Program-made: the position numbers and the translations under genes
Virus record (IMG/VR): IMGVR_UViG_3300027749_003742
Location: 1 to 60,982 of that record
Strand: one strand, 5' to 3'
Source: a virus
Taxonomy: Duplodnaviria; Caudoviricetes
Length of the DNA: 60,982 nucleotides
Shown here: positions 19,846 through 60,982 of the stretch, in pieces
How the letters are laid out: the number at the start of each line of letters is the position of its first letter
How positions within the stretch are numbered: position 1 is the stretch's first letter
The notes under the pieces: model-generated
What the model saw: only the letters and a program-made list of their open reading frames with translations
Databases searched by the model: none
What the model was told of the DNA's origin: nothing

Positions 19846-20413
19846 GGTGTTAGATTGCTATACTGAAAAACATCACATTCTTCCTCGTTGTATAGGTGGT
19901 ACTGATGGGAAAGATAATTTAGTTAGATTAACTGCACGTGAACATTTTATATGTCATAAATTACTAGTTCATATTTATCCCAATAATAAGTTAAAGTTTG
20001 CTCTGTGGTCTATGTGTAGGCGTACCAATAAGCAAAATAGACACATACTTAGTTCTAGAGAGTATGAATCAATCAAATTATTATGGGTTGATTTGAATTC
20101 AAAAAGAATACGAACACAGGAAGAGAGAAAGAAAATGAGCGATTCAAGAAAAGGTATAGTTTTTTCAGACGAAACAAAATTAAAAATGAGTAAGGCAAGA
20201 AGTAGTCAGAAAGATTCACTTGAAAGAATAAAAAAACGAGCAGAGTCTATATCAAAAGTAAAAAAAGGGAATCCACTAACTGACCTACACAAACAGGCAT
20301 TAAAAAAACCAAAAAACAAAATTAAAAATTGTTCAACGTGCCAAATATGTGGTATATATACAACAAAAACAGTAATAAGTAGAAATCATGGAAAAGATAA
20401 ATGTAAAAAATAA
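19796..20413 (+). mobile_element. HNH homing endonuclease with NUMOD3-like repeats
   Basis: EKHHILPRCIGGTD..NLVRLTAREHFICHKLL; SDETKLKMS repeats. Confidence 0.9.
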
Positions 20414-46041: not shown

Positions 46042-48377
46042 ATATAAAATACGATAATAATGAAATTTCATTACTGAGTCTTTTTGAGTCTGACCACATT
46101 TATAAACATTTAAAAAAGACTGGTAATTTTTATGAGTTAAAACTTTTAGAAAAAGTTAAATCGTTAAATTTAACGGGTACGTATATCGATGTTGGTGCTA
46201 ATATAGGTAATCATACTATTTTTTTCTCAAAATTTTGTAAATCAACACAAGTAATCTCGATTGAATTAAATTGTGAAATTTATAAAGTTCTACAACAAAA
46301 CGTAATTAACTCACCAAATGTATCTACAATTAATATTGGGGTTGGTGAAAAATTTAAACATGTTAAAATATCTAATATTGATGAAACTAATGTTGGGATG
46401 ACAAAAATAATTGGCGAAAATGGGGATATTGTAGTAGATACTTTAGATTCTATTTTATCAGATGTAAACAATATAAGTATTATTAAAATTGATGTTGAGG
46501 GGTATGAAAAAAATGTTTTAATAGGCGCAAAAAATATTATTTCTAAACATTCTCCAGTAATAATTGCGGAACTTAGAGATGAAAAAGAATTTGACGAGTT
46601 TGAAAAAATATCTAATGATATTGGATATTTTACAGATAAAATAAACTACGCCTCAACCCCAACTTATTTTTGGTATAAGAAAAATGAAATATATGATTTT
46701 GTTTATATTATACCAACTTATGAAAGATTTGATAAAGTTAAACCATTAATAGACGACATATTAACTAAGAATCTAAATACTTTAATTATTGTGTTAAGTG
46801 ATGGTTCTTCAGATAAACGTTATAAAACATTAATTAACTTTAATAAACGAGTTGTTTATATTGAAAATAGGACTAACAATGCCAAAGAAAAATATTGGTT
46901 AACCGTTAACACCTTATTAAATGAAATGTCTAAGTATAAATTTAAATATGGGGTAATGTTAGGTGATGATTTCACACTCATCGATGGTTATCAAGAGAAA
47001 TTAGAGAAATATATTAGTGATGGTAACATAGTTAGATTATTTACACAACAATCTATTGGGGACACTAATTGGGGGTTTAAAGATTGGGTTGACGGCGCGT
47101 TCTGTGCACCATACTCATTCTTTCAAAAAATCAATTTTGAATTATTTCCGATAAAAAAATTAATCGGACGGGTTTCTTCAGGGGTCGGCCAACAGATGTC
47201 CCAACGATTGACTAACTTAAATTATGTTGTAAAAAATTACGGTTCGTTAATTCGTCATATTGGTAATGACGATTCAAAAATGCACCCAACAATTAGACTA
47301 AATCAACCATTAGTTGCGGATTTTAAAATCCAACAGAAATTATTAACCATTATTATACCCACTTTTAATAACGTTGAATTTATTAAAGAATGTTTATCAT
47401 CAGTGATTAAGTCAGTAAAGTCGTTGAATTGTGAAATCTTAGTAGGTATTGATTCTTGTGAAAAAACGTTAGAATTTGTATCAAAAAACATGTTTGATGG
47501 TAGAGTACGATTTTTATTTTTTCAACATAATGTTGGTCCATATATAATTAAAAATAGTTTAGTGAAAAATTCTAATTCTGATACAATTTTATTTTTTGAT
47601 TCTGACGACATAATGTGTGAAAACATGGTCGAAGAAATTATTAAATTACAATCATTTAATGATTTTGTAAGACCTAAATATATTAATTTTAATGGGTTAA
47701 TACCTACTAACCCTCCTGTGAGTAACGAAAAACTTTTTGGTGAAGGAGTTTTTAGTATAAAAAAAGAATTGTTCCTATCGATGAACGGGTTTGAGCCATG
47801 GAGAACAACCGCCGACACTGATTTTATGGGTAGATTATATAAGAATAGTCGTAAATCAACTAATACCCCTACAGTCCTATTCTATAGAAGAATTCATCAA
47901 AATAGTTTAACACAATCCAAACAAACTGGACATGGGTCAAAAGTTAGACAAAACTATAATAATCTAATAAGGAATAAGACTTCCTTTGGACCGTTACCTA
48001 ATTTAAGTACCTCACCATTTATTGAAATTTCTGTTGGTCATACTAAACCCGTTGAAATATTCGATGAGGTTAAACATAAAAAAATGGTCGTAAATGATAT
48101 GGTTAAAGGTATTTTAAATAAAACAAATATATCAAAAACAATTGATTACGACTTAATAAATAAAAACACTCAAAAACAAGGGGTTTATGTTCCGATTAAT
48201 AATGTGAAACCTATTAGAGAAAATAAACCTGTTGATAGAATGAAGATTACTGAACTTAAAAAAGACTCACTCGCATATCAATCCCGAGAATTTGGTGGTA
48301 TTAAAAAAACCAACAAAAGTTCTTCACCAAATATTTTTGGTGGTAATAATAAAAGAAAAGGTGGTCCATTACTTTGA
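46023..48377 (+). CDS. FkbM-family methyltransferase fused to two GT2 domains
   Basis: IDVGANIGNH and IKIDVEGYE; IIPTYER..GDDF; IIIPTFN..FFDSDD. Confidence 0.85.
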   Translation: MEYGRVNIKYDNNEISLLSLFESDHIYKHLKKTGNFYELKLLEKVKSLNLTGTYIDVGANIGNHTIFFSKFCKSTQVISIELNCEIYKVLQQNVINSPNVSTINIGVGEKFKHVKISNIDETNVGMTKIIGENGDIVVDTLDSILSDVNNISIIKIDVEGYEKNVLIGAKNIISKHSPVIIAELRDEKEFDEFEKISNDIGYFTDKINYASTPTYFWYKKNEIYDFVYIIPTYERFDKVKPLIDDILTKNLNTLIIVLSDGSSDKRYKTLINFNKRVVYIENRTNNAKEKYWLTVNTLLNEMSKYKFKYGVMLGDDFTLIDGYQEKLEKYISDGNIVRLFTQQSIGDTNWGFKDWVDGAFCAPYSFFQKINFELFPIKKLIGRVSSGVGQQMSQRLTNLNYVVKNYGSLIRHIGNDDSKMHPTIRLNQPLVADFKIQQKLLTIIIPTFNNVEFIKECLSSVIKSVKSLNCEILVGIDSCEKTLEFVSKNMFDGRVRFLFFQHNVGPYIIKNSLVKNSNSDTILFFDSDDIMCENMVEEIIKLQSFNDFVRPKYINFNGLIPTNPPVSNEKLFGEGVFSIKKELFLSMNGFEPWRTTADTDFMGRLYKNSRKSTNTPTVLFYRRIHQNSLTQSKQTGHGSKVRQNYNNLIRNKTSFGPLPNLSTSPFIEISVGHTKPVEIFDEVKHKKMVVNDMVKGILNKTNISKTIDYDLINKNTQKQGVYVPINNVKPIRENKPVDRMKITELKKDSLAYQSREFGGIKKTNKSSSPNIFGGNNKRKGGPLL

Positions 48378-48419
48378 TTTTAAAAAAAAATATTCTTACA
48401 TTTACAAAAAATAAAAGAT

Positions 48420-48596
48420 ATGTTTGTAATAATTAAACACGTAAAAAATACAATAGGCGTTAAAGTTCCTGTAATTTTAATTAATAGTCACTCTGAGATT
48501 TGGGAGTTTGATACTCTTGAAGAGGCGGAATCCATGAGACTAATTTTTGAACAGAACTCAGATTCGGGTCATAAATACGAGGTTAAGAAAATTTAA
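48420..48596 (+). CDS. Small hypothetical protein (not in ORF track)
   Basis: 58-aa ORF MFVIIKHV..EFDTLEEA..YEVKKI. Confidence 0.6.
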   Translation: MFVIIKHVKNTIGVKVPVILINSHSEIWEFDTLEEAESMRLIFEQNSDSGHKYEVKKI

Positions 48597-48602
48597 TCAT
48601 AT

Positions 48603-48679
48603 GCACCCGTAGCTCAGCTGAAAAGAGCAACGGTTTTCTAAACCGTAGGTCCCAGGTTTGAATCCTGGCGGGTGTACCA
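48603..48679 (+). tRNA. tRNA-Arg(UCU)
   Basis: Cloverleaf; ACGGT-TTTCTAA-ACCGT; encoded CCA. Confidence 0.92.
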
Positions 48680-49198
48680 TCATAACCCACCGTGTATTTC
48701 TCGGTGACAATTAGAACATACTAACATACATTTGTCTAACTCATTTTTAATTACTTTGTCAAATTTATATTGTCTGACATGTGCAATTGTAAAATCCTTT
48801 TCATTGGGGATTAAATGATGAAAGTCTAAGGCTCCTATGTACTTATTGTATCCACATATTTGACAACAACCTCCTTTATAATCAACCATTTCCTGTTTTA
48901 ATTTTCTATTTCTTTCAGTAACTTGAATGGTTGTACATTTTTTACAATAAACTGACCCTCCTATTTTTCCTCTTCTATTATAAAATTCATCAATACTACA
49001 ATTATTATTACATTTTGGACATAGTCTGTGGTCACCATATTCTTTAATTCCTTGAGATGAAAAATTTTTTGTTTTAAAAGGTATTTTGTATTTTTTTACC
49101 CAATATCTAATAGTACTTAACGATTTACCCGTTTCTTTACTAATTTGATTTAATGATTTACCATCATTTATTAATTTTTCTAAAAATTCTTTTTTCAT
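48680..49198 (-). mobile_element. HTH plus HNH homing endonuclease abutting tRNA-Arg
   Basis: N-terminal HTH; CQICGY..ALDFHH..LVCSNCHREIH. Confidence 0.85.
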
Positions 49199-49277
49199 AG
49201 TTAAATGGATTATATTATATAAATATCCAATTAAACCATAAAATTGACATCAATAAAAAAGTGTTTATATTTAGTGT

Positions 49278-49529
49278 ATGGGAAGTCAAGATAATATGTT
49301 AGAACAAGAACATAATGAGTTCGTTAATAGCGAACTATTTTGTCAAATGATTAAGGAGAAAATCGAAAATTCTCATTATCATAAATATGATGGGATTGCC
49401 CCCGAAGGGTTTATCTTAATACCTGAACAAACTTTAGAACGATTAAAAGATTTCGACTATTGGAAGGAGTGGATACACGACTCAACAACTTTTAATAAAG
49501 ATATGAAAGAGGATACAAAAAATATGTGA
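49278..49529 (+). CDS. Hypothetical protein
   Basis: ORF. Confidence 0.55.
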   Translation: MGSQDNMLEQEHNEFVNSELFCQMIKEKIENSHYHKYDGIAPEGFILIPEQTLERLKDFDYWKEWIHDSTTFNKDMKEDTKNM

Positions 49530-49569
49530 TTTTTCTTGGATAGTCAAATCTTTTTTGTATCTTTGTTCT

Positions 49570-50160
49570 ATGAAAAATATATTAGGATTTCTTTTTATTT
49601 CTTTTGGTGTTATGGTAGCGTTGAAAGAAGAATACCATTGTAAAAATTACAGTGAGGTCTTTTCAAAAATGACGAATAGTGGGAGTTCTTCTGAATCAAC
49701 TCCTTCGGTTGAGGACCAAGTTGTTTATATCTCAGGTTTGGGGGATTTTGACCAATCCGATTTAGAAACGGCCTCAAAGGCTATTACTGAAGTATACGGT
49801 CTTAAATGTGAAATAATTAATCCAACAAGTACCTCAGATATTTTATATAATGAGAAGGGTAAGTTAGACGCAAAAATATGTCATCAACAATTAAATCCGA
49901 AAAATAAAACGGTTTATGTGACAAATGAATATGTAATGTCTGATGGGATAATTGTTTGTGGGGCAACAACATTTTATGGTAATTTTATTATTGTTAGTGA
50001 TAATTTTAATAATCACGTAAGAAATACTACACTTCATGAAATGGCACACACTTTTGGTCTTGGTCATTGTGATAATCAATGTATATTAGGTCATATTAAA
50101 CTTGGCGAACCTAACGGTAAATTTTGTAACGACTGTAAAATAAAACTTGGATTAAAATGA
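49570..50160 (+). CDS. Archaemetzincin-like (M54) Zn protease, membrane anchored
   Basis: HEMAHTFGLGHC..C..FCNDC. Confidence 0.8.
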   Translation: MKNILGFLFISFGVMVALKEEYHCKNYSEVFSKMTNSGSSSESTPSVEDQVVYISGLGDFDQSDLETASKAITEVYGLKCEIINPTSTSDILYNEKGKLDAKICHQQLNPKNKTVYVTNEYVMSDGIIVCGATTFYGNFIIVSDNFNNHVRNTTLHEMAHTFGLGHCDNQCILGHIKLGEPNGKFCNDCKIKLGLK

Positions 50161-50432
50161 AAACTTTTGAAGATTTAGAATTTAGACCTCATCGTATGGA
50201 TGGTGTACAATCAATTATGATGTTTGATAATGGATATGGTGTTTCTGTTATTAAAACGCCACACTCTTACGGTGGAAAAAGGGGTCGATACGAATTGGCG
50301 GTATTAGACTCAAGTGAGGCAATTACATACAACACACCTGTTACTGAAGATGTATTAGGTTACCTTTCTGAAAAAGAAGTAACAAGATACATGATAGAAG
50401 TTCAAAAATTATTAACCTTTAACTTAAAATAA
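50157..50432 (+). CDS. Conserved-type phage hypothetical protein
   Basis: FDNGYGVSVI..YELAVL. Confidence 0.65.
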   Translation: MKTFEDLEFRPHRMDGVQSIMMFDNGYGVSVIKTPHSYGGKRGRYELAVLDSSEAITYNTPVTEDVLGYLSEKEVTRYMIEVQKLLTFNLK

Positions 50433-50484
50433 TATGCCAGATTTCACAACCGAGATTGACATTGACCCATATGAGTATGTGTCG

Positions 50485-50762
50485 CAGATATGCCCAGTTT
50501 GGGATTAAATAGTAGAAACTTTAAATAATAAATAAAATGACAAAAAAAGCAGAAAATTCAAATGAAACACAGAACCCCAAATTGGGTATATCTGTTGTTA
50601 TAAATCGTTTTTTAGATAAAGTGTTATTGTGGTTGATTTATCGTAGATGGAGAATGTTAGGTAAGAAAATAGATGGTAAGACATTTTTATCGTCTGATTA
50701 TGCTAAAAGACGTAAATCTTATGAGAGTTTGATGTGGGAAGTTAGGAAAAATGATTTATAAC
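50485..50762 (+). mobile_element. Integron-like gene cassette (attC-like hairpin plus ORF 50537-50761)
   Basis: 19-bp imperfect IR 50485-50503/50576-50594; GTTATAAATCGTTTT..AAAATGATTTATAAC ends. Confidence 0.55.
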
Positions 50763-50796
50763 GAACAAGTATAAATATAATAATTTTATAAAAATG

Positions 50797-50827
50797 TTTG
50801 ACAATTGAAGAACTTTTACTACTTTTG
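50797..50827 (+). promoter_or_regulatory. Bacteroidota consensus promoter of tRNA operon 1
   Basis: TTTG-N19-TACTTTTG. Confidence 0.8.
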
Positions 50828-50865
50828 TAATAGTTATTAGAAAACAATTGAAAAAAATAGAATCA

Positions 50866-50970
50866 ATGAGAACAAATATTAAACATATGGTCATTATCAG
50901 TAAATCGCAATTTATGAATTGCTGGTATCCGCGTGTTTCAAGTATTGGTTCGGAATTGAGTGTAAGATAA
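50866..50970 (+). CDS. Putative attenuator leader peptide 1 (34 aa)
   Basis: MRTNIKHMVIISKSQFMNCWYPRVSSIGSELSVR; codons match downstream tRNAs; contains antiterminator strand. Confidence 0.75.
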   Translation: MRTNIKHMVIISKSQFMNCWYPRVSSIGSELSVR

Positions 50971-50992
50971 AAGTTAAGTATAACATATATCT

Positions 50993-51025
50993 AAACCCCG
51001 AGCCACATAAGGTTCGGGGTTTTTT
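50993..51025 (+). terminator. Attenuator terminator 1
   Basis: AAACCCCGAGCC-ACATAA-GGTTCGGGGTTT-TTT; 5' arm can alternatively pair with 50946-50953. Confidence 0.85.
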
Positions 51026-51032
51026 GTTTTAA

Positions 51033-51052
51033 GTTCATTGACATATTGGTTT
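51033..51052 (+). promoter_or_regulatory. boxA-like antitermination element
   Basis: GTTCATTGACATATTGGTTT; near-identical copy at 58049-58068. Confidence 0.6.
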
Positions 51053-51062
51053 AAAAGTTTAT

Positions 51063-51146
51063 TGTCCTGTAGTGTAATTGGCAACACACCTGATTTTGGC
51101 TCAGGAATCCGAAAGGTGTATTCAGGTTCGAGTCCTGACAGGACAA
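51063..51146 (+). tRNA. tRNA-Gln(UUG) with 16-nt variable region
   Basis: CCTGA-TTTTGGC-TCAGG; T-arm TCAGG-TTCGAGT-CCTGA. Confidence 0.85.
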
Positions 51147-51151
51147 CACAT

Positions 51152-51221
51152 TGCGTGGCTCATTGGAGAAGAGTTATTTCTCATAAGGATGACCAGGTGG
51201 GTTCGACTCCCATACACGCAA
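51152..51221 (+). tRNA. Degenerate tRNA with CAU anticodon (Met/Ile2)
   Basis: CTCATAA loop, intact T-arm; about 3 nt missing between acceptor and D stems. Confidence 0.55.
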
Positions 51222-51271
51222 CGACAAAAAAAAGTTTGGTAATATAAAATAAATTACTAACTTTGTCAAAC

Positions 51272-51343
51272 AGTTCCTTAGCTCAACGGTAGAGCACTTG
51301 TCTTACATACAAGAAGTTGCGGGTTCGATTCCCTCAGGAACTA
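51272..51343 (+). tRNA. tRNA-Val(UAC)
   Basis: CTTGT-CTTACAT-ACAAG. Confidence 0.9.
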
Positions 51344-51349
51344 CAATAA

Positions 51350-51422
51350 GGACCTCAAGCTAACTTAGTAGAAGCGTTGGACTGAAAATCCAAAGGACTT
51401 GGAGCGTAACCAAGGGGGTCCA
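51350..51422 (+). tRNA. tRNA-Phe(GAA) with atypical T and D loops
   Basis: TTGGA-CTGAAAA-TCCAA; T-loop AGCGTAA. Confidence 0.8.
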
Positions 51423-51502
51423 CGGAGGCCTGAAATAACAGGACACCCCCACTCCCATATGGCAGTCAGTCCGTTAACCTGATGAAGTGGGGTTTTTTAA
51501 AT

Positions 51503-51577
51503 GGAGTGTATAGTGTCAGTGGTTGAGCACGTTAGTTTGTGGTACTAATAGGGTGAGTTCGAATCTCACTATACTCC
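51503..51577 (+). tRNA. tRNA-His(GUG)
   Basis: G-1:C73; TTAGT-TTGTGGT-ACTAA. Confidence 0.9.
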
Positions 51578-51729
51578 CAAAAGTCGGGACGCTACGGTCG
51601 TAAATTCTGCAGAATGAGAAGACGAAAAGCCTAAGCACGCAGATGAGCTCGCGTTGACGACTATAAAATTGGATGTGGGGTTTGTTAGTAAAACAAGTTA
51701 CTTATCAATTAATGTGTATATTTATTAAT

Positions 51730-52314
51730 ATGAGAAAAGAAAAATACACCAAAGAATTGTTAGAAAAACTTGTTTCAGAATCCGAAACTTTTTCTGACTT
51801 GGTTAGGAAACTAACCTTAAAAACAAAGGTTCATGGTAACATGGTCGCCTATATAAAAAAAAAGTTGATTGAATTAGGTATTAATTTTGACCATTTTAAA
51901 GGAAGGAGTTGGTCAAAAGGTAAATCAAATTCTACGGGTACTGCGTTAACTAAAGAAGAATTTAGTGAGTTTTATTTATCTAAGAACGCAAAAAAATATA
52001 CAGGTAGTAATAATATTAAAAAATACTTGTTTAAGTTTGGTTTAAAAGAGAATAAATGTGAGGTATGTGGTATTGGCGAATATTGGAATGGGTTACCAAT
52101 CTCAAATCAATTAGACCATATTGATGGGGATAATCAGAATAACGAAATAAATAATTTACGAATTTTATGCCCTAATTGTCATAGTCAAACTAAAACTTTC
52201 GCAGGTAGAAATGTAAAAACGGAAGGCGCCCGAATGGACGAGGACACCGCCTTGAAAGCGGCTGAGTGTAAAAGCTTTGGGGGTTCGATTCCCTCGTCTT
52301 CCGCAAAAAAATAA
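51730..52314 (+). mobile_element. HNH homing endonuclease (ORF runs through tRNA-Ser)
   Basis: CEVCG..LDHIDGDNQNN..NLRILCPNCHSQT. Confidence 0.88.
52221..52303 (+). tRNA. tRNA-Ser(UGA)
   Basis: CCGC-CTTGAAA-GCGG, long variable arm, G73. Confidence 0.88.
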
Positions 52315-52318
52315 AATT

Positions 52319-52741
52319 ATGAAAACAAAAGAAGAGGCAAAACTTGATTTTGAAATGACTGTCAAACGTCTTAGAGAAGAACGAGAGATTAAACGAAAGG
52401 AGTATTGGAATGATTTGAAACCCTTCAATGAACCAAACGACATTCCTGAAATCCCAAGGGTGGATGAAAAAGAGTATAAAGAGTTCTACATCCCAAGATT
52501 AATTAAGGCGGGAGCAATCCCAAAGAAAGACTTAATTCACGGTCAGGTTTATATTGGGGACCACAGGAACACAGATATTGCAAGATGGAATCAGGAAACA
52601 AACAAATTTGACCACATGAGATATAAGTTTGGTTGGATGGAAGATGACTGTAATCATTTTGAAGATGACGATGGATTTGCATTATTTGTTCCGATTAAAT
52701 TAGGAACTGAAGAAGATTGGACTAACAGATTAACAAAATAA
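52319..52741 (+). CDS. Hypothetical protein
   Basis: ORF. Confidence 0.65.
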   Translation: MKTKEEAKLDFEMTVKRLREEREIKRKEYWNDLKPFNEPNDIPEIPRVDEKEYKEFYIPRLIKAGAIPKKDLIHGQVYIGDHRNTDIARWNQETNKFDHMRYKFGWMEDDCNHFEDDDGFALFVPIKLGTEEDWTNRLTK

Positions 52742-52745
52742 AAAC

Positions 52746-52952
52746 ATGACAAAAAAAATAACTCAGTCCCTTAAAGACCAACAAATTTCAGAACCTGAAA
52801 TAATCGATTTAATTAGTTCTTACCGAAAAATGGTAAAGGCAGGAATCCTAAAAGAAAAAGGGTTTGTTAAACTTTTAATTAAACTGGGAATTGACCGACC
52901 AAGTGATAACCAATTCATCCTTGATGAGAATAAGGTATATACGCTTAAGTAA
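52746..52952 (+). CDS. Hypothetical protein
   Basis: ORF. Confidence 0.55.
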   Translation: MTKKITQSLKDQQISEPEIIDLISSYRKMVKAGILKEKGFVKLLIKLGIDRPSDNQFILDENKVYTLK

Positions 52953-52957
52953 AAAAC

Positions 52958-53030
52958 AGTCTCTTGGTGTAACGGATTAGCACCTATCGTTACGGCCGAT
53001 AAAGTTTGGGTTCGAATCCCAAGGAGACTA
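52958..53030 (+). tRNA. tRNA-Arg(ACG)
   Basis: TATCG-TTACGGC-CGATA. Confidence 0.9.
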
Positions 53031-53070
53031 CAACATCCGATGTGTGTTCCCGAGCTAGGTCGGGATAAAT

Positions 53071-53158
53071 GGAGAATAGAGGAGGGAAATGGTGTCCCCG
53101 ATTGTTTGCTAAACAATAACCCATTAAGTTGGGCGTGGTTCGAGTCCACTGTTCTCCG
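53071..53158 (+). tRNA. tRNA-Ser(GCU), 8/4-type cloverleaf
   Basis: ATTGT-TTGCTAA-ACAAT; 8-bp acceptor stem, 4-bp T-stem. Confidence 0.8.
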
Positions 53159-53165
53159 CAACAAT

Positions 53166-53238
53166 GGTTCTGTAGTTCAATTGGAAGAACAAAGTCCTTC
53201 TAAGGATGGTCAAGTGGGTTCGAATCCCTCCAGAATCA
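53166..53238 (+). tRNA. Second tRNA-Arg(UCU) with irregular anticodon stem
   Basis: CTTCTAA loop, A20; anticodon stem mispaired. Confidence 0.6.
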
Positions 53239-53248
53239 CTAAAATAAA

Positions 53249-53320
53249 CGGGGTGTAGTCTTGAGGAGAGACGCTTGGTTTGGGACCAAGAGGCGGCGGG
53301 TTCGACTCCCGCCACCCCGA
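53249..53320 (+). tRNA. tRNA-Pro(UGG)
   Basis: CTTGG-TTTGGGA-CCAAG. Confidence 0.92.
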
Positions 53321-53389
53321 CAAAAAATTTAGTAAAACAGAACGATATATACCAAAAAATGGTTACTTTTGTTCAATAAAACTAAACAT

Positions 53390-53462
53390 TGTGATGTGTC
53401 CGAGCGGCTTAGGAACTATCCTGATACGATAGTCTACGTGGGTTCGAGTCCCACCGTCACAA
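53390..53462 (+). tRNA. tRNA-Ile(GAU)
   Basis: CTATC-CTGATAC-GATAG. Confidence 0.9.
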
Positions 53463-53511
53463 CCTTGGGTCGTTTTTGTACTTTAATGATATTTATTATT
53501 AAAGTACAATT

Positions 53512-54156
53512 ATGGCAAGAAAAGAAAAAAAATATCATTACATTTACAAGACCACAAATATTAAAAATGGAAAATATTATATCGGAATGCACAGTACTGA
53601 TAATCTTGAAGATGGTTATATGGGGTCTGGTAAAAGATTGAGACGTTCTTTGAAGAAATACGGTAAACAAAATTTTAAGTCTGAAATCTTGGAATTTTTA
53701 CCAAATAGGGTATCTTTAATCGAAAAAGAAAAAGAATTGATAAATGAGAAACTATTAAAAGATTCATTATCAATGAATATTAAAAAGGGTGGTGAAGGTG
53801 GTTTTGTTAACAACGAACATAAAATTAAATTTATTAATGAGGCGGTAAAGATGTTTAACATTAATAAGGAGAAAATGGTTGAGAGGAAAAAATGGTTGTG
53901 GGATAATGATAAAGAATGGCGTGATAATTTTAGTAAAAAACTAAGTAATAGTAAAATAGGTAATATCAGTTGGACTGGATTACATCATACTGAAGAAACA
54001 AAAAGAAAAATATCGAAAAAAAATTCAATAAATCAAAAAGGTGAAAACAATTCCCAATTTGGGACTCGTTGGGTTACAAATGGAAAAGAGAATACAAAAA
54101 TTAAAAAAGAAGAAACAATTCCTAATGGATGGAGATTGGGAAGAAAATTGATATAG
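53512..54156 (+). mobile_element. GIY-YIG (Seg-like) homing endonuclease with NUMOD3
   Basis: YIYKTTN..GKYYIGMH..YMGSG; HTEETKRKIS. Confidence 0.9.
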
Positions 54157-54161
54157 AATGT

Positions 54162-54230
54162 AAGTCTATGGTGAAACGGTTTATCGTCTATGTATACAAA
54201 ACCAAGGTTTCAGCTTCAAATCCTGATTAC
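54162..54230 (+). pseudogene. Decayed tRNA remnant
   Basis: D-arm-like GGTGAAACGGTTTATC and T-arm-like TCAG-CTTCAAAT-CCTGA; no valid anticodon arm. Confidence 0.4.
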
Positions 54231-54301
54231 TCCTTCATAGCTTACTGGTAAAGCTTACGACTTTTAATCGTAAGACCCAAGTTCGATTCTTGGTGGGGGA
54301 A
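54231..54301 (+). tRNA. tRNA-Lys(UUU)
   Basis: TACGA-CTTTTAA-TCGTA. Confidence 0.9.
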
Positions 54302-54305
54302 CAAT

Positions 54306-54377
54306 GGTCACATGGCCGAGTGGCTTAGGTGATGGTCTGCAAAACCATCCACGTAGGTTCGAATCCTACTGTGACCT
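54306..54377 (+). tRNA. tRNA-Cys(GCA)
   Basis: ATGGT-CTGCAAA-ACCAT; U73. Confidence 0.93.
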
Positions 54378-54388
54378 CAAACAAATAC

Positions 54389-54461
54389 GCGTCTTTGGTG
54401 TAACGGCTTAGCATAAGTGACTCCAAATCTCTTGGTCAGGGTTCGAATCCCTGGGGACGCG
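54389..54461 (+). tRNA. tRNA-Trp(CCA)
   Basis: CTCCAAA loop; G73. Confidence 0.9.
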
Positions 54462-54469
54462 CAATTATT

Positions 54470-54541
54470 GGCTTGGTAGCTCAGAGGAAGAGCATTCGTT
54501 TGTTAAGCGAGAGGTCGGGATATTTTAATTCCTCCAATCCG
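54470..54541 (+). tRNA. tRNA-Asn(GUU) with degenerate T-loop
   Basis: TTCGT-TTGTTAA-GCGAG; T-loop ATTTTAA. Confidence 0.65.
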
Positions 54542-54618
54542 TAATTATTTTAAGAAAAATGTTGTGGGTATTAAAATTAGTTGTATATTTGTAAAACAAA
54601 CAAACTAAAACATATACC

Positions 54619-55065
54619 ATGACAAACACAATCATCAACGTAACAACAGGAACATTAGCAGGAGATACTTTCTACGGAAACTTTAACACTACCATCAAAG
54701 GTAAAAGAGAATCTGTTATGGTGTCTAACCATATCAAGGATTTGAATAAAGAATACGAATTCCGTATCGCAAACAAATGTCAGGCAGGATTTATTAATAT
54801 CCACGACACTAAAGGAACTGCGGAAGGAGTTATCCGTGGGTACAGTAAGAACTCATTGGCTAACATTCAAGTTAAGAATGAGTTCGGTCATTGGGTGAAC
54901 GTATACACCACCAAAGGTGGTAAATGGTACTCAATTGACAAAGGGTTCATGGATGTATTGACTGTTGGGACAATGAGAGAGTCTTTCCCTGTTATGTGTG
55001 ACATGGAAATTTGGACTAAATTTGGAGCAAAAACTTGGGCGGACAAGGCGTTCGTCCAAAATTAA
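54619..55065 (+). CDS. Hypothetical protein
   Basis: ORF behind TATATTTG. Confidence 0.7.
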   Translation: MTNTIINVTTGTLAGDTFYGNFNTTIKGKRESVMVSNHIKDLNKEYEFRIANKCQAGFINIHDTKGTAEGVIRGYSKNSLANIQVKNEFGHWVNVYTTKGGKWYSIDKGFMDVLTVGTMRESFPVMCDMEIWTKFGAKTWADKAFVQN

Positions 55066-55071
55066 AAAAAT

Positions 55072-55159
55072 AGTCAGGTGGCGGAATTGGTTAGACGTAA
55101 CCAATAGGAAAGCAATCAGCAACAACTGGTTTACACAGGTTCGAATCCTGTCCTGACTA
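55072..55159 (+). ncRNA. tRNA-scaffold RNA 1 (no canonical anticodon loop)
   Basis: AGTCAGG/CCTGACT acceptor, Leu-type D arm, perfect T arm; 23-nt loop in place of the anticodon loop. Confidence 0.7.
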
Positions 55160-55319
55160 CAAGTAGCCCGAAGTACAAGGGACCGAAGATGGAGATTACA
55201 GACATAGGTTGAAATAAAAAATACCTTCGGGTACATCTATGTAATGGCGTGGACGCTCCCCGAATCGTGGGTCGGCATAGTTTGTGTGTTCTAGGGGTAT
55301 TTGAAAAACACACATTTTT

Positions 55320-55449
55320 AGTCAGGTGGCGGAATGGTAGACGCTACATAGATAGTCAACTACAACAATAATAAAAATGGGTTGCTCCATATAATAAGAA
55401 TTGCTCTGTCGCAGAGGTTGATATACAGGTTCGAGTCCTGTCCTGACTA
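55320..55449 (+). ncRNA. tRNA-scaffold RNA 2
   Basis: Same acceptor and T stems as 55072 with an unrelated insert of about 80 nt. Confidence 0.7.
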
Positions 55450-55590
55450 CAAAGGTTGATTGGGGAATGGTGATACCTATGACACGAGAGTGTGTGTCGG
55501 TCGGTATCATCGGAGTTTGCAGGTACACACCGAAGTAACGCCAATCGTAAAAGAGGATGTCCACTGAACCATCTTCCTCTTTCCTAACTT

Positions 55591-55670
55591 GGGAGTGTTG
55601 AGCAACGGTTGCTTAGCTGACTGTAAATCAGTGGTCTACGACATTGGGGGTTCGAATCCCTCCACTCCCA
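55591..55670 (+). tRNA. tRNA-Tyr(GUA)
   Basis: GCTGA-CTGTAAA-TCAGT; variable arm. Confidence 0.92.
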
Positions 55671-55948
55671 CTAACTTTTAAACTAATAGTCTTCGAAAAT
55701 AGTAATTTTATTAAAACAGATAACATTGATGGTCAATGGTTATCTCCCATTCCTTCTGAGAGAGAATGGCAAGAACAAAAATTGGTTGAGATATTTGGGC
55801 ATTACCCAAATGCAAGTCCAAGATGGCAATACTTAAATGCGTTAATTTTAAGTGCTTTGGAACATATTGAGCAGAATAAAGAATAAGAAGTGTTAGAGAC
55901 CACGCATTTTAAGATTTACAACTATTTATTTTAATATAGAATAATAGT

Positions 55949-57343
55949 ATGAATTTTAAACAAATATTAATTGCTGAGTCCGAGAAGAAACGTATCAGGG
56001 AAATGTATGGAATATTAACAGAACAATATTTCAAAGCTCCTAATGGTGGTACGGGTCAAGTAGTTAATAAATATCCTGCGGGTTATTATTCGTTAAGTGG
56101 TACGGATAAATCAGGTACCGCATATGACAACACAACCAATTTACAAAAAATTATCGATAACGCCAAAGAGTTTTTAACGGCTAATAAAGGTTATATCCCA
56201 AGAATTGTTATTAATGCGGGTGAATCTATTAACCCTAATTACGATACTGAAGGTGGTACGGGAGTTAAAAGTTCAGGATGGTTGTCTCAAAAAAGAAAAG
56301 ACAAAATTGAGGTATATATTAAACAACAATTAAAAGATTTAGTCGATAAAAAACTTATCTCAAAGTATCCCGAGGTTATTTTATATTTTGATGAGGCGAA
56401 AACATTAACAATACCATCAGGTGGGTGGGACGATTATCGAACATGGAAAAAATCTACCGACCAAGAAAAAAAGGTAAACCCTAAAAACGCCGAATATATT
56501 AAGTTAAAAACTGGCTACGATACCGACCAATTTACTAAAATAAATTTTAAAATTGTTCCTGATTTTGGGGATAATCAATGTTCATTTAATGTTAAAATTG
56601 GGGTACACTATGATGATTTAAGTATTGGTCATAGATGTAACACTGCAAGGTTTGAAATCTTGGCAAACGGTGTACAATTAACGACAGGTGGTGGAACAAC
56701 ATGTGGGTCAGGATTACGATATGCCGATATGAATAATGGTGGTGGTAGTTTAGATTGTAAATCAGGCGATATTGGTGGACAAAGAATGAATTATTTCCAA
56801 TTAAATAATAAGTCCGTGGTTGATAAAATTATAGCAGCGTCTCCCGATAAAAACACTATAAAAATAACTATGAGATGTACGTCAACAGGATTTAACGACC
56901 CTACTGGTAGATGTCATCAAGATGTTCCACATGTTACGGTTCACAATACTGATGGTAAAGTAACTGTTGACACATACCCTAGAATAAACGATGACGCCCT
57001 AATAACTATTGATAAATGTGGTAATAAAATTTCAGGTGGAGGGGGAGTACCAACAAAAAGTAAAGACGCAGCATCGGGAACGACAACGACACCTAATACC
57101 CCAACGACAACAACTACAGGTCAGAAAATAAATTTTGCCGCACCTGCAACAGGAACATTAACTTCAGACCAAGCAATCCTTAACAAACTAAGTAGTGGTG
57201 AGGTTAAGAAAAATACCGATAATACTTATTCAGTTTTGAAAACGTTTGCGTACAACGGTATTACTTATAAAGTCGGAGATACTATTGTAAAAATATTACC
57301 AAAGGGGAGTACTGTGACAACGACAACGACAACAATTAAATAA
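55949..57343 (+). CDS. Large putative virion protein, Cys/Thr-rich C-terminus
   Basis: TATTTAT upstream; LIAESEKKRIREMYGILTEQ leader. Confidence 0.65.
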   Translation: MNFKQILIAESEKKRIREMYGILTEQYFKAPNGGTGQVVNKYPAGYYSLSGTDKSGTAYDNTTNLQKIIDNAKEFLTANKGYIPRIVINAGESINPNYDTEGGTGVKSSGWLSQKRKDKIEVYIKQQLKDLVDKKLISKYPEVILYFDEAKTLTIPSGGWDDYRTWKKSTDQEKKVNPKNAEYIKLKTGYDTDQFTKINFKIVPDFGDNQCSFNVKIGVHYDDLSIGHRCNTARFEILANGVQLTTGGGTTCGSGLRYADMNNGGGSLDCKSGDIGGQRMNYFQLNNKSVVDKIIAASPDKNTIKITMRCTSTGFNDPTGRCHQDVPHVTVHNTDGKVTVDTYPRINDDALITIDKCGNKISGGGGVPTKSKDAASGTTTTPNTPTTTTTGQKINFAAPATGTLTSDQAILNKLSSGEVKKNTDNTYSVLKTFAYNGITYKVGDTIVKILPKGSTVTTTTTTIK

Positions 57344-57364
57344 AAAATGGGGTTACCCCCACTT

Positions 57365-57760
57365 CTATTCAACCTTACCGTAGTAATTGTATGAGGTTTT
57401 ATCATCCTCAACAATAACCGTAATTGTTGTATTATCAACACATGGTGATGTAAAATAAGTAACTACGTATGATTTTTTAGTACTTTCTTCTACTGAGTAA
57501 AAAGAATTAACACCAGGGTTAGCGTTTTTCTTACCCAATAAAGTATAAACCATATCACCATTTTTATGTTTAATAACCAAAGAATCTTGGTAGATTAAAA
57601 TTGTTGGTGATACTACCAATATAGAATCAGACCAAGTAGAAGTACTGTCAGTTATTGAATGACCAACCTCTAACGATTTGATATTTACTTTATAGATGTC
57701 TTGAGACAAGCAAAAGATTGTTGTTAAAGACAATAACGATGTGACGATTAATTTTTTCAT
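57365..57760 (-). CDS. Exported hypothetical protein
   Basis: Signal peptide ending CLS-Q; TATCTTTG upstream. Confidence 0.65.
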   Translation of the reverse strand: MKKLIVTSLLSLTTIFCLSQDIYKVNIKSLEVGHSITDSTSTWSDSILVVSPTILIYQDSLVIKHKNGDMVYTLLGKKNANPGVNSFYSVEESTKKSYVVTYFTSPCVDNTTITVIVEDDKTSYNYYGKVE

Positions 57761-57878
57761 ATCTTTTTATTTATACCACAAAGATAGAATAAAGTTCCGA
57801 TAAAAAAAAATTTTTATCAAAAAACTTGACACTTTCCAAAAGTGACATATATTTAATTAAAAACAGACAATACTGCAA

Positions 57879-57947
57879 ATGAAAAATTTAAATACAATAC
57901 TATTAGGCGGGACTGAGGCGGATACGACTCGGACGGAGATGGTATGA
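57879..57947 (+). CDS. Putative attenuator leader peptide 2 (22 aa)
   Basis: MKNLNTILLGGTEADTTRTEMV; contains GGAGATGG antiterminator strand. Confidence 0.75.
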   Translation: MKNLNTILLGGTEADTTRTEMV

Positions 57948-57972
57948 TATTTAGTATAATAAAACTTAATTG

Positions 57973-58002
57973 AACCCATCTCCAAAAAAGATGGGTTTTT
58001 TT
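57973..58002 (+). terminator. Attenuator terminator 2
   Basis: AACCCATCT-CCAAAAA-AGATGGGTT-TTTTT. Confidence 0.85.
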
Positions 58003-58081
58003 ATGTCTATTATTTTGTAATAACAATTATTTGTAGTAGATTTGTAATGTTCTTTGACATATTGGTTTGAAAAAAAAATAC

Positions 58082-58154
58082 GGCTCCATGGTTGAATGGC
58101 TACAATACCACCCTGTCACGGTGCGTGGTACGGGTTCGAATCCCGTTGGGGCCG
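58082..58154 (+). tRNA. tRNA-Asp(GUC)
   Basis: CACC-CTGTCAC-GGTG; G73. Confidence 0.9.
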
Positions 58155-58178
58155 CTTATTAACAAAATGGTTGTATTT

Positions 58179-58322
58179 ATGAGGATGAAAAAAATTAGTT
58201 TATTCCTGATTGTGTTGTTCACATTAATATCAGGATGTCAGTCAGACCCTAAATTCCGTAATTCGGAATTCACTAGGAAACCTGCACAGTATAATTCAAA
58301 TTACTCCTCGAAATACAGATAA
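58179..58322 (+). CDS. Small lipoprotein
   Basis: MRMKKISLFLIVLFTLISGC lipobox. Confidence 0.55.
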   Translation: MRMKKISLFLIVLFTLISGCQSDPKFRNSEFTRKPAQYNSNYSSKYR

Positions 58323-58329
58323 GGCATAT

Positions 58330-58406
58330 CGCAGGTTATGGAAGTGGTCTATCCGTCAGGTCTCATAAGCCAGAAATCGGGGGTTCGAATCCCTCACCTG
58401 CTACCA
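58330..58406 (+). tRNA. tRNA-Met(CAU), initiator-like
   Basis: C1:U72 mismatch; CTCATAA loop; CCA; lacks the three consecutive G-C anticodon pairs. Confidence 0.8.
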
Positions 58407-58409
58407 AAT

Positions 58410-58488
58410 GGGGGTGCATGTACCAAGGCTTTGGCGATGTCGATTTGCAATCAACGTGAGGTGGGTTCGATTCCCATCATCTCCACCA
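58410..58488 (+). tRNA. tRNA-Ala(UGC) with atypical D arm
   Basis: G3:U70; TTTGCAA loop; CCA. Confidence 0.85.
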
Positions 58489-58509
58489 AATAAACAAGTA
58501 AAATGAAGA

Positions 58510-58662
58510 ATGATGAAAGAAGTTTTATCGGGAACTTTCAAGTCGTCTAAAAAAGAATTTATTAAGGTAAATCAAGAAGATAATCTGATTGAAAGTTTGA
58601 AAAAAACGCTGAAAAGAACAAAGTACAGGTTCAGAGTGAGGAGCGGGTCTCACAAAAAGTAA
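58510..58662 (+). CDS. Small basic protein (not in ORF track)
   Basis: 50-aa ORF whose 3' end overlaps a structured element. Confidence 0.4.
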   Translation: MMKEVLSGTFKSSKKEFIKVNQEDNLIESLKKTLKRTKYRFRVRSGSHKK

Positions 58663-58744
58663 ATGGTGTCTTGGTCCGCTCTGAATGGTGACATTTAACG
58701 ACAAGGTCTCGGTGGACAGAACGCGTCTGATTCCACCCAAATTT

Positions 58745-58820
58745 GCGGGTATCGTATAATGGATTATTACTTTAGACTTCCAATCTAAAGATGTGAGTTC
58801 GATTCTCACTACCCGCTCCA
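58745..58820 (+). tRNA. tRNA-Gly(UCC)
   Basis: TTAGA-CTTCCAA-TCTAA; U73; CCA. Confidence 0.93.
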
Positions 58821-59062
58821 AATAAAAATAATTTCTCCAAAAAGGTTTGGTGGATTCAGAAAAGTTTAGTACTTTTGTAATGTGAGAATGGGGGACACGG
58901 TCGGTGAGAAGTTGGTGACCTGTCCCCCGACAAAAGAGTTAAAAGTTCATTGAAAAGAATATCTGTGGTGGGTAAAAAACGGTAAACTCGTAAAGTGCAT
59001 TTACTTGTTGATATGAAATGGTGAAACGAGGGTCCATATCAACTACACACCATAAAAATATT

Positions 59063-59238
59063 GAGAGAGTGGCGGAAAATAAAGACGCTTAAGCCGTCGC
59101 ACAATATCGGGGATTTTGGTTTAACAACCAAATATACGTGATGTAACCCGAGGCTGAGGTCATTCGAGTTAGGTTTTTACCTAATTCCAACCTGTAAAAA
59201 GGTGGTAGACAATGTGGGTGAAACCCCCACCTCTTTCG
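59063..59238 (+). ncRNA. tRNA-scaffold RNA 3 with multibranched insert of about 125 nt
   Basis: GAGAGAG/CTCTTTC acceptor; TGGCGGAA..AGACGC D arm; GTGGG-TGAAACC-CCCAC T arm. Confidence 0.6.
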
Positions 59239-59400
59239 CCTTATTGATAATGGTTTTCCCCATTCAACGGATGTCGACAATCCAGAATGGAATCGGAATT
59301 CATCACCCCCTGAAAAGGACAGTGCCGAGGCCTCGTAAAACTACGATTAAGCACTTAAGATTGGAGCGAGACGGGTACTCCATCATTATCATAATATTAT

Positions 59401-59472
59401 GTTGCCATCGTCTAACGGTTAGGACCTATGGTTTTCATCCATAAAATCGGAGTTCGATTCTCCGTGGCAATA
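59401..59472 (+). tRNA. tRNA-Glu(UUC)
   Basis: TATGG-TTTTCAT-CCATA. Confidence 0.92.
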
Positions 59473-59747
59473 CAAACGAGTAAGAGATATTCGTAGGGTT
59501 TTTAAGTATCCCTCAAAACTTGACGGAGTTGGTACCATTACGTTACAGGGTACTCGTTGGGAATAAGGAAGGAAGGTTCTCCTCTCCCCCAAGTAAGAAC
59601 TGACTTTTAAGTGATAGGACACGTTGGGTTTTCAAATAGAGAAACTATAAATATCCACTCACCACAATCTCAGGTGGGGTCCCAACCAAGGGCAATGCGG
59701 GTTCATACCTGCGGAGCAAGGTGACGGTCAGGAAAGACTGACAAAGT

Positions 59748-59828
59748 AACCAAGTAATACGTAATGGCAAAACGGTTATGTCACCCTTTATGGTTGTATC
59801 GTTGTAGGTTCGAGTCCTATCTTGGTTG
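59748..59828 (+). ncRNA. tRNA-like RNA 4
   Basis: AACCAAG/CTTGGTT acceptor, canonical T arm, long irregular stem in place of D/anticodon arms. Confidence 0.55.
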
Positions 59829-60045
59829 CTCGTTTCGGTTAGTTTACCGAATAGTATGTCCAATACGATGTGAAACGGGTTTAACTCCGTATGGAAACGT
59901 ACATAAGCGTATAGGGAGAACGCTTGGGTAAGTCAACCCGACCTCGTGAGGACGAACTGACTATTCCTAACCTGTAGTGGGGACAACCATAATACCTGTA
60001 AGCTGGATAAATAAGGGTATTTTTAACTTTTAAATAAATTGTAAA

Positions 60046-60192
60046 ATGGAAGAATGGAATCGTAATGAATGGCAAGGAAAAAGAAAAGACCAAGTCATGT
60101 ATACAAGAACAGTTTCGATTATTGGCGTGATATCAATTATTGTGATTTTATTGATATTTGGAATTTGTCAACTTTGTGGTATAAAGTTATAA
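60046..60192 (+). CDS. Small membrane protein (not in ORF track)
   Basis: MEEWNRNEWQGKRKDQV followed by a TM helix. Confidence 0.6.
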   Translation: MEEWNRNEWQGKRKDQVMYTRTVSIIGVISIIVILLIFGICQLCGIKL

Positions 60193-60196
60193 TCAC

Positions 60197-60279
60197 GCTC
60201 GGGTGTTGAAATTGGTAAACAAGACGGTCTTAAACACCGTTGGGAAAATCCCTTGAGGGTTCAAGTCCCTCCCCGAGTA
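60197..60279 (+). tRNA. tRNA-Leu(UAA)
   Basis: ACGGT-CTTAAAC-ACCGT; variable arm. Confidence 0.92.
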
Positions 60280-60469
60280 CTAAAATAAAACGACAGAAGT
60301 CCGACTTGCACGGATGAAAGGAACTTTGACTTCATGGGAGTTGCTACCCAACCGAAGAGAAATAAATGACTCAAGGTACTCTGTTTAGGACCCTGCTCTA
60401 CGTGGCCACGTAACAGGTGATGGGGAACAAACCATCAGTAAAATCCGTAAAAACGTTTTATTTTTTTAT

Positions 60470-60541
60470 TGGGAGTTCAGTTAATGGTTAGGCTATGAAT
60501 CTTATACATTCATAAAATGAGTTCGATTCTCATACTCCCAA
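60470..60541 (+). tRNA. tRNA-Ile(UAU)
   Basis: TGAAT-CTTATAC-ATTCA; A73. Confidence 0.88.
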
Positions 60542-60676
60542 CTATAAGTTCTTTGGAAATGGTGTACTTAGAATATTTTTTTATCTGTGTCTACCTTTTT
60601 TTCCACTGCCGCTTCAAATTTACACAGCACTAACACGCATAGCATATACAACTTGTTATGCACAGTACGGAAAATT

Positions 60677-60904
60677 ATGACACCAAAAGAAAAAGCGTTA
60701 GAATTAATCGAAAAATTCAAAATTAATGATTATGATTGGATAGCACAAGGGAATCTCTATTGTATTAAGCAACATGCTTTAGTTACAGTTGACGAAATTT
60801 TGAATACGATATTCAATGAAGATTTTTCTGGTCATCTTCTTGATGAAATCGGAGCGTCAGATTATTGGAATGAAGTAAAAAGTGAAATCGAAGCACTAAA
60901 GTAG
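60677..60904 (+). CDS. Hypothetical protein inside integron-like cassette
   Basis: MTPKEKALEL..VDEIL..YWNEVKSEIE. Confidence 0.7.
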   Translation: MTPKEKALELIEKFKINDYDWIAQGNLYCIKQHALVTVDEILNTIFNEDFSGHLLDEIGASDYWNEVKSEIEALK

Positions 60905-60910
60905 TATTGT

Positions 60911-60964
60911 GCATAACGTCTGATGATAAACAATCGTTTTAATGTTGTTTATCATTTGTTAGGT
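60911..60964 (+). mobile_element. attC-like site
   Basis: GCATAAC..ATGATAAACAA/TTGTTTATCAT..GTTAGGT. Confidence 0.6.
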
Positions 60965-60982
60965 TTAGTTAAATTATTGTTT

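Follow-up and report, generated by a model that had tools for sequence, protein, structure and literature searches.

The trpL, hisL, leuL, and pheL leaders are the classical attenuators, the leader of pheST (pheM) controls a synthetase operon, and two enterobacterial attenuators are multivalent, namely, the ilvGMEDA leader, with Ile, Leu, and Val codons, and the thr leader, with Thr and Ile codons. The general model of the leader-peptide attenuator and the pheL attenuator are treated in the available parts of two papers (PMC1183508 and PMC3082878, respectively). Here we describe a comparable element in a viral contig, IMG/VR record IMGVR_UViG_3300027749_003742, which was analyzed over its whole length of 60,982 base pairs (bp) (the window). 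The contig carries two tRNA arrays, each headed by a leader unit, and the parts of both units and array 2 lie on the plus strand. The segment at the head of array 2 (unit 2, 57826-58005) is, in our judgment, quite probably a ribosome-mediated (leader-peptide) transcription attenuator.

Unit 2 resembles the ilv and thr attenuators in the order of its parts, with a promoter-like site, a short leader open reading frame (ORF), mutually exclusive 1:2, 2:3, and 3:4 helices, and a terminator ahead of the genes. Its regulatory codons are also of several kinds, and its stop codon is placed such that a finishing ribosome would mask region 2. Judged by its sequence, it has the features that define the ilv/thr-type attenuator class: a leader ORF, an intrinsic terminator, a 2:3 antiterminator, 1:2 pairing, and regulatory codons matching the products. 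Unlike those systems, the phage unit would control tRNA genes rather than enzymes and would gauge the very tRNAs that its own operon encodes; it has one or two codons for each of 7 to 15 tRNAs, whereas ilv and thr have runs for one to three amino acids; and it is carried by a phage, whose host is likely a member of the Bacteroidota, and has a boxA-like element past its terminator. The trpL, hisL, leuL, pheL, and pheM leaders share the switch logic, and pheM is a precedent for such control over genes of the translation machinery, but each responds to a single amino acid through tandem codons and none controls tRNA genes. T-boxes likewise report the state of tRNA through a choice between terminator and antiterminator, but they are untranslated and bind tRNA directly, with one specifier codon, whereas the phage leader ORF is conserved as a frame. 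The trn operon of Anabaena, whose long array of tRNAs is induced by translational stress (PMC8421152, PMC10272220), is similar, as far as the available parts of these papers go, in being an accessory tRNA array that is turned on when translation is impaired. The title of the 2023 paper names a transcriptional repressor, TrcR (PMC10272220), and a word search of the two texts found no mention of attenuation, a leader peptide, or a terminator. No published account of attenuators before tRNA arrays was found in a full-text literature search, in which most subscription journals were not covered. The switch logic itself is known; what is new here is a set of attenuator codons matched to the encoded tRNAs.

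The anatomy of the unit, its conservation, its covariation, and the match between its codons and the tRNAs are direct observations of this analysis. At the 5′ end, a promoter-like site (57826-57853) would start the leader transcript; it reads TTGACA-16-TATATT, with 11 of 12 matches, or, alternatively, CTTG-N19-TATATTTA, and a site of this type is also present in the five relatives with leaders of the same family (family A) that were viewed (loci L091, L108, L137, L149, and L122). Promoter-like matches as a class are near chance in the region (63 found versus 54.7 expected). The leader ORF, of 22 codons with an ATG start (57879-57947), reads MKNLNTILLGGTEADTTRTEMV and begins 26 nucleotides (nt) past this site, which is a promoter by consensus match only. 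No Shine-Dalgarno sequence precedes the ATG; such a lack is usual in Bacteroidota. Codons 2 to 15 are the sensing part, as delimited by ribosome-blocking folds, and codons 4 to 9 contain region 1 (57888-57904), which in minimum-free-energy folds is the 5′ half of the 1:2 anti-antiterminator hairpin. Sequence, folds, and covariation define both region 2, the antiterminator strand GGAGATGG (57935-57942), and region 3, CCATCTCC (57976-57983), which is common to the antiterminator and to the 5′ arm and loop of the terminator. The TGA stop codon (57945-57947) lies 2 nt beyond region 2. The intrinsic terminator (57972-58005) is a stem-loop of 10 pairs (57972-57998; predicted free energy [ΔG], -12.4 kcal/mol) followed by a T run. 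Between it and array 2 lies a second promoter-like site, TTTG-N19-TAGATTTG (58014-58044), and the array is headed by a boxA-like 20-mer, GTTCTTTGACATATTGGTTT (58049-58068). Array 2 (58082-60542) encodes tRNAs Asp-GTC, Met-CAT, Ala-TGC, Gly-TCC, Glu-TTC, Leu-TAA, and Ile-TAT, and the contig ends 440 nt past Ile-TAT.

An earlier note, made from the sequence of this DNA, had proposed the ORF, the 8-bp helix between regions 2 and 3, the stop codon 2 nt after the helix, the terminator, and both promoter-like sites, and each of these was found where it had been placed. Among 20,000 dinucleotide shuffles, 314 had a perfect complement of at least 8 bp linking the ORF region to the 5′ arm or loop of the terminator. 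The complement in the window is, on its own, modest support, and the case rests on the relatives.

The predicted folds are those expected of a switch between exclusive helices. The minimum-free-energy fold of the whole leader combines 1:2 and 3:4 (-34.7 kcal/mol; z = -4.9; equaled by 0 of 200 shuffles), and its 1:2 hairpin (57888-57954) pairs 57888-57904 with 57938-57954 at a predicted ΔG of -19.1 kcal/mol. When the terminator 3′ arm (region 4) is left out, GGAGAUGG pairs with CCAUCUCC to give the 2:3 helix, at -14.5 kcal/mol. With a ribosome footprint made unpairable, the 2:3 helix formed for A-site codons 2 to 15 and was absent from codon 16 to the stop codon. Predicted folds of the nascent RNA pair at least 3 nt of region 2 upstream, inside the ORF, in 16 of 20 representative leaders.

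We infer from this anatomy that the ORF is translated, that ribosomes stall within it, and that RNA polymerase can read through the terminator. The promoter would start a short transcript, and the 22-codon ORF would be translated as RNA polymerase proceeds. A ribosome slowed within codons 2 to 15 would hold the 1:2 hairpin open, region 2 would then pair with region 3, the terminator would be blocked, and transcription would enter array 2. With fast decoding, the ribosome at the stop codon would mask region 2, the terminator would form, and the transcript would stop; a leader that is left untranslated would form 1:2 and 3:4, and the transcript would stop as well. The net effect would be a feedback gauge of the supply of usable tRNA, for precisely the kinds of tRNA that the array encodes, and unit 1 would do likewise for array 1. 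The phage probably makes more of the array tRNAs when ribosomes slow at their codons.

To find relatives, the 15-mer that directly precedes both arrays, whose listed matches were mostly due to chance, was extended to the 20-mer. A scan with the latter gave 62 viral loci, mostly phage tRNA arrays, which fall into at least six leader families having a promoter-like site, an ORF of 20 to 39 codons, a 3′ part able to pair with the terminator 5′ arm, and then tRNAs. Family A is the type of unit 2 and family B that of unit 1. A scan with the terminator pattern added 31 further loci, 28 of them with a family A leader; L159, L167, and L168, which are identical around the match and have a terminator with neither a leader ORF nor a family A context, were left out, as was L174, a duplicate of L162. 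The leader frame is open in all 34 distinct family A sequences (20 to 26 codons, with frame-keeping indels), while both alternative frames hold stops in all 34. Variable columns at codon positions 1, 2, and 3 number 8, 8, and 14 in family C, 6, 4, and 14 in family F, and 5, 6, and 9 in family B, with the third position highest in each. The leader stop codon also remains a few nucleotides past region 2 among the relatives.

The family A sequences likewise keep the 2:3 helix, with 260 of 272 cells (95.6%) paired, compared with 41 to 65% in slid controls, and its covariation score was matched in 0 of 500 shuffles. At helix column 93/142, three pair types occur (U-A in 23 sequences, A-U in 5, and G-C in 4, with 2 other or unpaired). 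The 8-bp helix is perfect in 22 of the 34 sequences, and the terminator pairing is kept in 99% of cells among the relatives. Changes of the compensatory type are also seen in other families, for instance in family C (TCTCGAGGT/ACCTCGAGA versus TCCCGAGGT/ACCTCGGGA). Within the same loci, an upstream complement score of at least 7 was found for 25 of 43 distinct terminators that precede tRNAs, compared with 11 of 76 others (Fisher P = 1e-6).

The sensing codons of unit 2 encode K N L N T I L L G G T E A D, and those for L, I, L, L, G, G, E, A, and D match the array in the window. When close relatives are included, the sensing codons Leu-TTA, Ile-ATA, Leu-CTA, Gly, Thr, Glu, Ala, and Asp all have cognate tRNAs behind the terminator. 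Within the 21 codons after its start, leader 2 has codons for all seven of the array 2 tRNA boxes (P = 0.011 against fragments drawn at random from phage genes). All 12 array 1 boxes have codons in leader 1 (P = 0.00045), as do all 15 when three weaker tRNA-like genes, Ser-TGA (52221-52302), an Asn-like gene (54470-54541), and an Arg-TCT-like gene (53166-53239), are added. Among 27 leader/array pairs, hand-picked as representatives of distinct pairs, box coverage was complete in 17, and 22 had a P value of <0.05; the arrays of L128, L015, and L154 include a second block with its own undetected leader, and their missed boxes belong to that block.

Each leader matches its own array rather than the other array of the same phage. 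For boxes exclusive to one array, the two-by-two counts of own- versus other-array codons in the window are 20, 5 and 3, 10 (Fisher P = 0.001), and the same direction was found in 9 of 9 phages with two leaders, these being the loci used for the test (each P ≤ 0.011). The pooled counts (209, 34 and 63, 131) come from related phages that are not independent, and pooled P values overstate that independence; the direction in each phage, together with the differing partitions of tRNAs, is the sounder argument. The division of tRNAs between arrays varies, as family C/F phages have Ala, Asp, Glu, and Thr in array 1 and Pro, Tyr, and Gln in array 2, and the leaders track the division that is specific to each phage. 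The claim in the earlier note that the two leaders have complementary codon lists is thus upheld both in the window and in the two-leader phages. Own-array codons make up 366 of 458 upstream of the helix (region 2), compared with 101 of 215 elsewhere. Where synonymous boxes are split between the arrays (Leu TTR/CTN, Arg CGN/AGR, Ser TCN/AGY, and Ile ATY/ATA), 46 isoacceptor codons match the own array and 7 the other, and therefore selection at the level of the peptide cannot account for the match.

Within family A, codons come and go with the tRNAs. For the 17 distinct leaders with at least six downstream tRNAs (shorter or duplicate ones were dropped), the numbers of cases with both codon and tRNA, the codon alone, the tRNA alone, and neither were 11, 3, 0, and 3 for Thr; 6, 3, 0, and 8 for Arg-AGR; and 8, 3, 1, and 5 for Leu-CTN. 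The prediction, made from the leader 2 codons, that additional tRNAs would be found beyond the window or in relatives held in part. As had been noted, no Thr tRNA is found in the window; both Leu-TAG and Thr-TGT are present in this array in relatives with near-identical leaders (L120/L026, L033, and L171/L175), and in L120 and L033 they directly follow Ile-TAT. The suggested Arg-CCG tRNA was not found, with its box (R_CG) in 0 of 17 family A arrays; the CGG codon falls in a part of the ORF at which stalling would in any case leave region 2 masked.

The downstream promoter-like site bears on the explanation that survives best among the alternatives, which we nevertheless consider unlikely. It holds that 57826-58005 is an independent small unit, consisting of a promoter, a gene for a 22-amino-acid peptide or a short RNA, and a terminator that acts as an insulator, and that array 2 is transcribed only from 58014-58044. 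The TTTG-N19 site at that position is presumably of the Bacteroidota promoter type. The earlier note had given it as a caveat, and rightly, as promoter-like sites between the terminator and the array recur in families A, E, and F (in family A, for example, in L120, L134, L055, and L149). The MKNLN/H N terminus, which is kept whatever the array contains, and an RNA-library contig that halts at the terminator also fit an independent unit. Such a unit leaves unexplained the covariation between the ORF 3′ end and the terminator arm, the enrichment of complements at terminators that precede tRNAs, and the own-array codon match, including that in synonymous boxes. Moreover, in families B, C, and D only 12 to 45 nt separate the end of the terminator from the first tRNA, too little to accommodate another promoter. 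A contig that bridges the terminator into the tRNA speaks weakly against it as well.

Somewhat less probable still is that the same switch serves as a general gauge of translation stress, such as amino acid starvation, ribosome inhibitors, or cold, with the codon match only tuning which stresses count. Any slowing in codons 2 to 15 would free region 2, and the available part of one paper reports a bacterial tRNA array induced by translational stress (PMC8421152). For such a gauge the codon match would be needless, yet it is specific to the own array in all nine two-leader phages and in the synonymous boxes. It is very improbable that the leader is a nontranslated regulatory RNA (riboswitch-like, T-box-like, or a small RNA) that switches the same helices by a ligand or uncharged tRNA with the ORF incidental, since its strong structure and its ATG without a Shine-Dalgarno sequence stand against a frame kept open despite indels while the other frames hold stops, an excess of third-position variation, a stop codon that stays close to region 2, and the lack of any Rfam family, T-box included, matching the leader at E ≤ 1. 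No T-box was among the 34 Rfam matches at E ≤ 1 in 47000-60982, and no known family was found at either leader, the sole match near unit 1 being rli42, at 26 bits versus a gathering score of 80. Interpretation as a T-box or a riboswitch was therefore abandoned.

The following points weigh against reading unit 2 as an attenuator of its own tRNA array, in addition to the relatedness of the pooled phages. There are one or two codons per tRNA rather than runs; single codons may be weak sensors, and the sensitivity is uncertain. The first codons, MKNLN/H, are kept regardless of the array (in the order of counts given above, Lys is 1, 11, 0, and 5; His is 1, 6, 0, and 10; and Asn is 5, 9, 1, and 2). 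As far as the contig reaches, the array in the window has no tRNA for the sensing codons AAA, AAT (twice), ACA, ACT, and CTA, and the match for Thr and Leu-CTN depends on the relatives. One helix mismatch is present in 12 of the 34 family A sequences, and the covarying pair is broken in L160 and in L172/L183. L137/L146 have a GTG start, a helix mismatch, and coverage of 3 of 4 boxes (P = 0.58). A contiguous 2:3 helix is lacking in family D (score, 5 to 5.5), where two of six folds, those of L122 and L154, show a helix in two parts with tandem G-A. The downstream promoter-like site allows transcription of the array independently of the leader, and the switch may control no more than a part of the array's output.

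Contigs from RNA libraries provide a weak hint in both directions of the proposed switch. One contig (57893-58084) crosses the unit 2 terminator to the 5′ end of tRNA-Asp, and another (50852-51066) crosses the unit 1 terminator likewise, while a contig from another study stops at 57997, where the terminator stem ends. These ends fit read-through with RNase P processing, and termination, respectively, but the contigs may be DNA and their ends may be assembly breaks, which also counts against the attenuator. All four RNA runs are represented by contigs, with RNA-run shares of 0.06 to 0.08, and no habitat is inferred from them. Depth is zero in all four RNA runs over the bins at 55996-57650, where the two protein genes preceding the leader lie, and the tRNA and leader bins have some; as a lack of coverage is not informative, this was not used as evidence.

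The 20-mer that heads both arrays, GTTC(A/T)TTGACATATTGGTTT (51033-51052 and 58049-58068), is consistently placed past the attenuator terminator in the phage loci. Its 17-nt core occurs in at least 120 bacterial genome stretches, mostly Bacteroidota by record title. Among the 122 occurrences listed, 80 lie within 200 nt past a tRNA-Ala(TGC), and in 3 of 3 loci checked the 17-mer falls between tRNA-Ala and 23S, that is, in the 16S-23S spacer. Its likeness to boxA was judged against the Escherichia coli boxA consensus. The 20-mer resembles the boxA of rRNA operons in this core, common to the Bacteroidota 16S-23S spacer, and in lying downstream of a promoter, where a long untranslated RNA operon begins; it differs in serving phage tRNA arrays, and binding of NusB/S10 and antitermination are putative. 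On this sequence match, it is likely an antitermination signal of the boxA type and hints at the phylum of the host, and the phage has copied a spacer element from the rRNA operons of its likely host phylum. By analogy, the element past the terminator would plausibly render polymerase processive across the untranslated array. Two other readings of the 20-mer were rejected. As a leader boxA upstream of 16S, it would have a 16S 5′ end within 1,500 nt downstream, which is the case in just 1 of the 122 occurrences listed; as a sigma-70 promoter (51038-51065, TTGACA-16-TATTGT), it would place the start inside tRNA-Gln. In L091 and L108, an inverted partial copy (AAACCAATATGT) is found just upstream of the family A leader promoter, and in these phages the leader unit thus lies between two copies of the motif.

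Unit 1 (50796-51052) lies ahead of array 1 and is unrelated in sequence to unit 2. It has a promoter-like site, TTTG-N19-TACTTTTG, a leader ORF of 34 codons (50866-50970), a terminator (50993-51022), and its copy of the 20-mer, followed by tRNA-Gln at 51063. With Watson-Crick pairs only, its best complement is 5 bp, which was equaled in 16,904 of 20,000 shuffles; its 8-bp helix in the window requires one G-U pair, and a perfect 8 bp is present in L120 and L138. A search for distant similarity with the unit 1 leader gave no match. A further unrelated leader (MTRTRLHMATLQGQGRHLPRGKG...) is found at L133:3812-3910, before tRNAs for Gln, His, Ala, Met, Arg, Leu, Gly, and Thr, with 8 of 8 boxes covered.

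The window also contains several tRNA-like genes of unusual form. The Arg-TCT-like gene (53166-53239), which ARAGORN labels tRNA-???, is a homologue of the Arg-TCT tRNA of L120 and has a 6-nt anticodon loop. The Asn-like tRNA (GTT; 54470-54541), which has an aberrant T arm, and an 88-nt element with a tRNA scaffold (55072-55159) are both Rfam tRNA matches that ARAGORN missed or read oddly. Genes for HNH and GIY-YIG homing endonucleases (51673-52314 and 53512-54156) are found inside array 1, and the HNH ORF extends into tRNA-Ser-TGA (52221-52302). In array 2, the tRNA-Met(CAT) (58330-58406) has an unpaired position 1:72 (C/U) and an encoded CCA end and is thus initiator-like; according to the earlier note, its supply would be sensed through failed initiation. 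A freshwater-1 RNA (RF02979) lies between tRNA-Leu-TAA and tRNA-Ile-TAT (60382-60443), at 70.5 bits versus a gathering score of 72; its area is covered by an RNA-library contig at a depth of about 145, with several differences.

The contig has about 31% G+C and encodes Hsp70, thymidylate synthase, and the HNH and GIY-YIG homing endonucleases, along with 21 tRNA genes found by ARAGORN at 48.6 to 60.5 kb and weaker tRNA-like matches. The nearest relatives of its Hsp70 are from uncultured phages of 634 to 735 kb, at 62 to 67% identity, and the DNA runs that contain the stretch are labeled as freshwater, lake, river, sediment, aquatic, or viral metagenomes; the contig is therefore part of a large phage from fresh water. 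The host is probably a member of the Bacteroidota. A megablast search of 57000-60982 against deposited phages gave a single 45-nt match and no cultured relative. For the thymidylate synthase (20388-21683; 431 amino acids), the match to the Pfam profile is split in two, suggestive of a large insertion within the gene.

Phage tRNA genes are mostly discussed in terms of their purpose, such as matching codon usage, replacing degraded host tRNAs, or evading anticodon nucleases, and to our knowledge their control has rarely been addressed. If unit 2 acts as proposed, the output of tRNA would be set by direct feedback from the speed of decoding, and the logic of trp and his attenuation would be widened from one amino acid to 7 to 15 tRNAs together. 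The content of an array would be readable from an ORF of 20 to 35 codons, and vice versa. We tentatively raise a broader possibility, which is doubtful as it stands, that the leaders are "barcodes" of the tRNA pool, with one codon for each tRNA of the array, by which the phage would detect the loss of particular host tRNAs, switch on the matching set, and switch it off once decoding recovers, with the passing polymerases made processive by the copy of the host rRNA operon boxA. The sources of such loss would be anticodon nucleases of the host, the phage's own shutoff of the host, or a mismatch in codon usage. The leaders would then be both a sensor of and a countermeasure against defenses that target tRNA, and the first known product-feedback control of tRNA genes. 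For engineering, the unit would provide a natural sensor that reads the supply of many tRNAs as multiple inputs, and it offers a testable handle on when and why large phages need tRNAs of their own.

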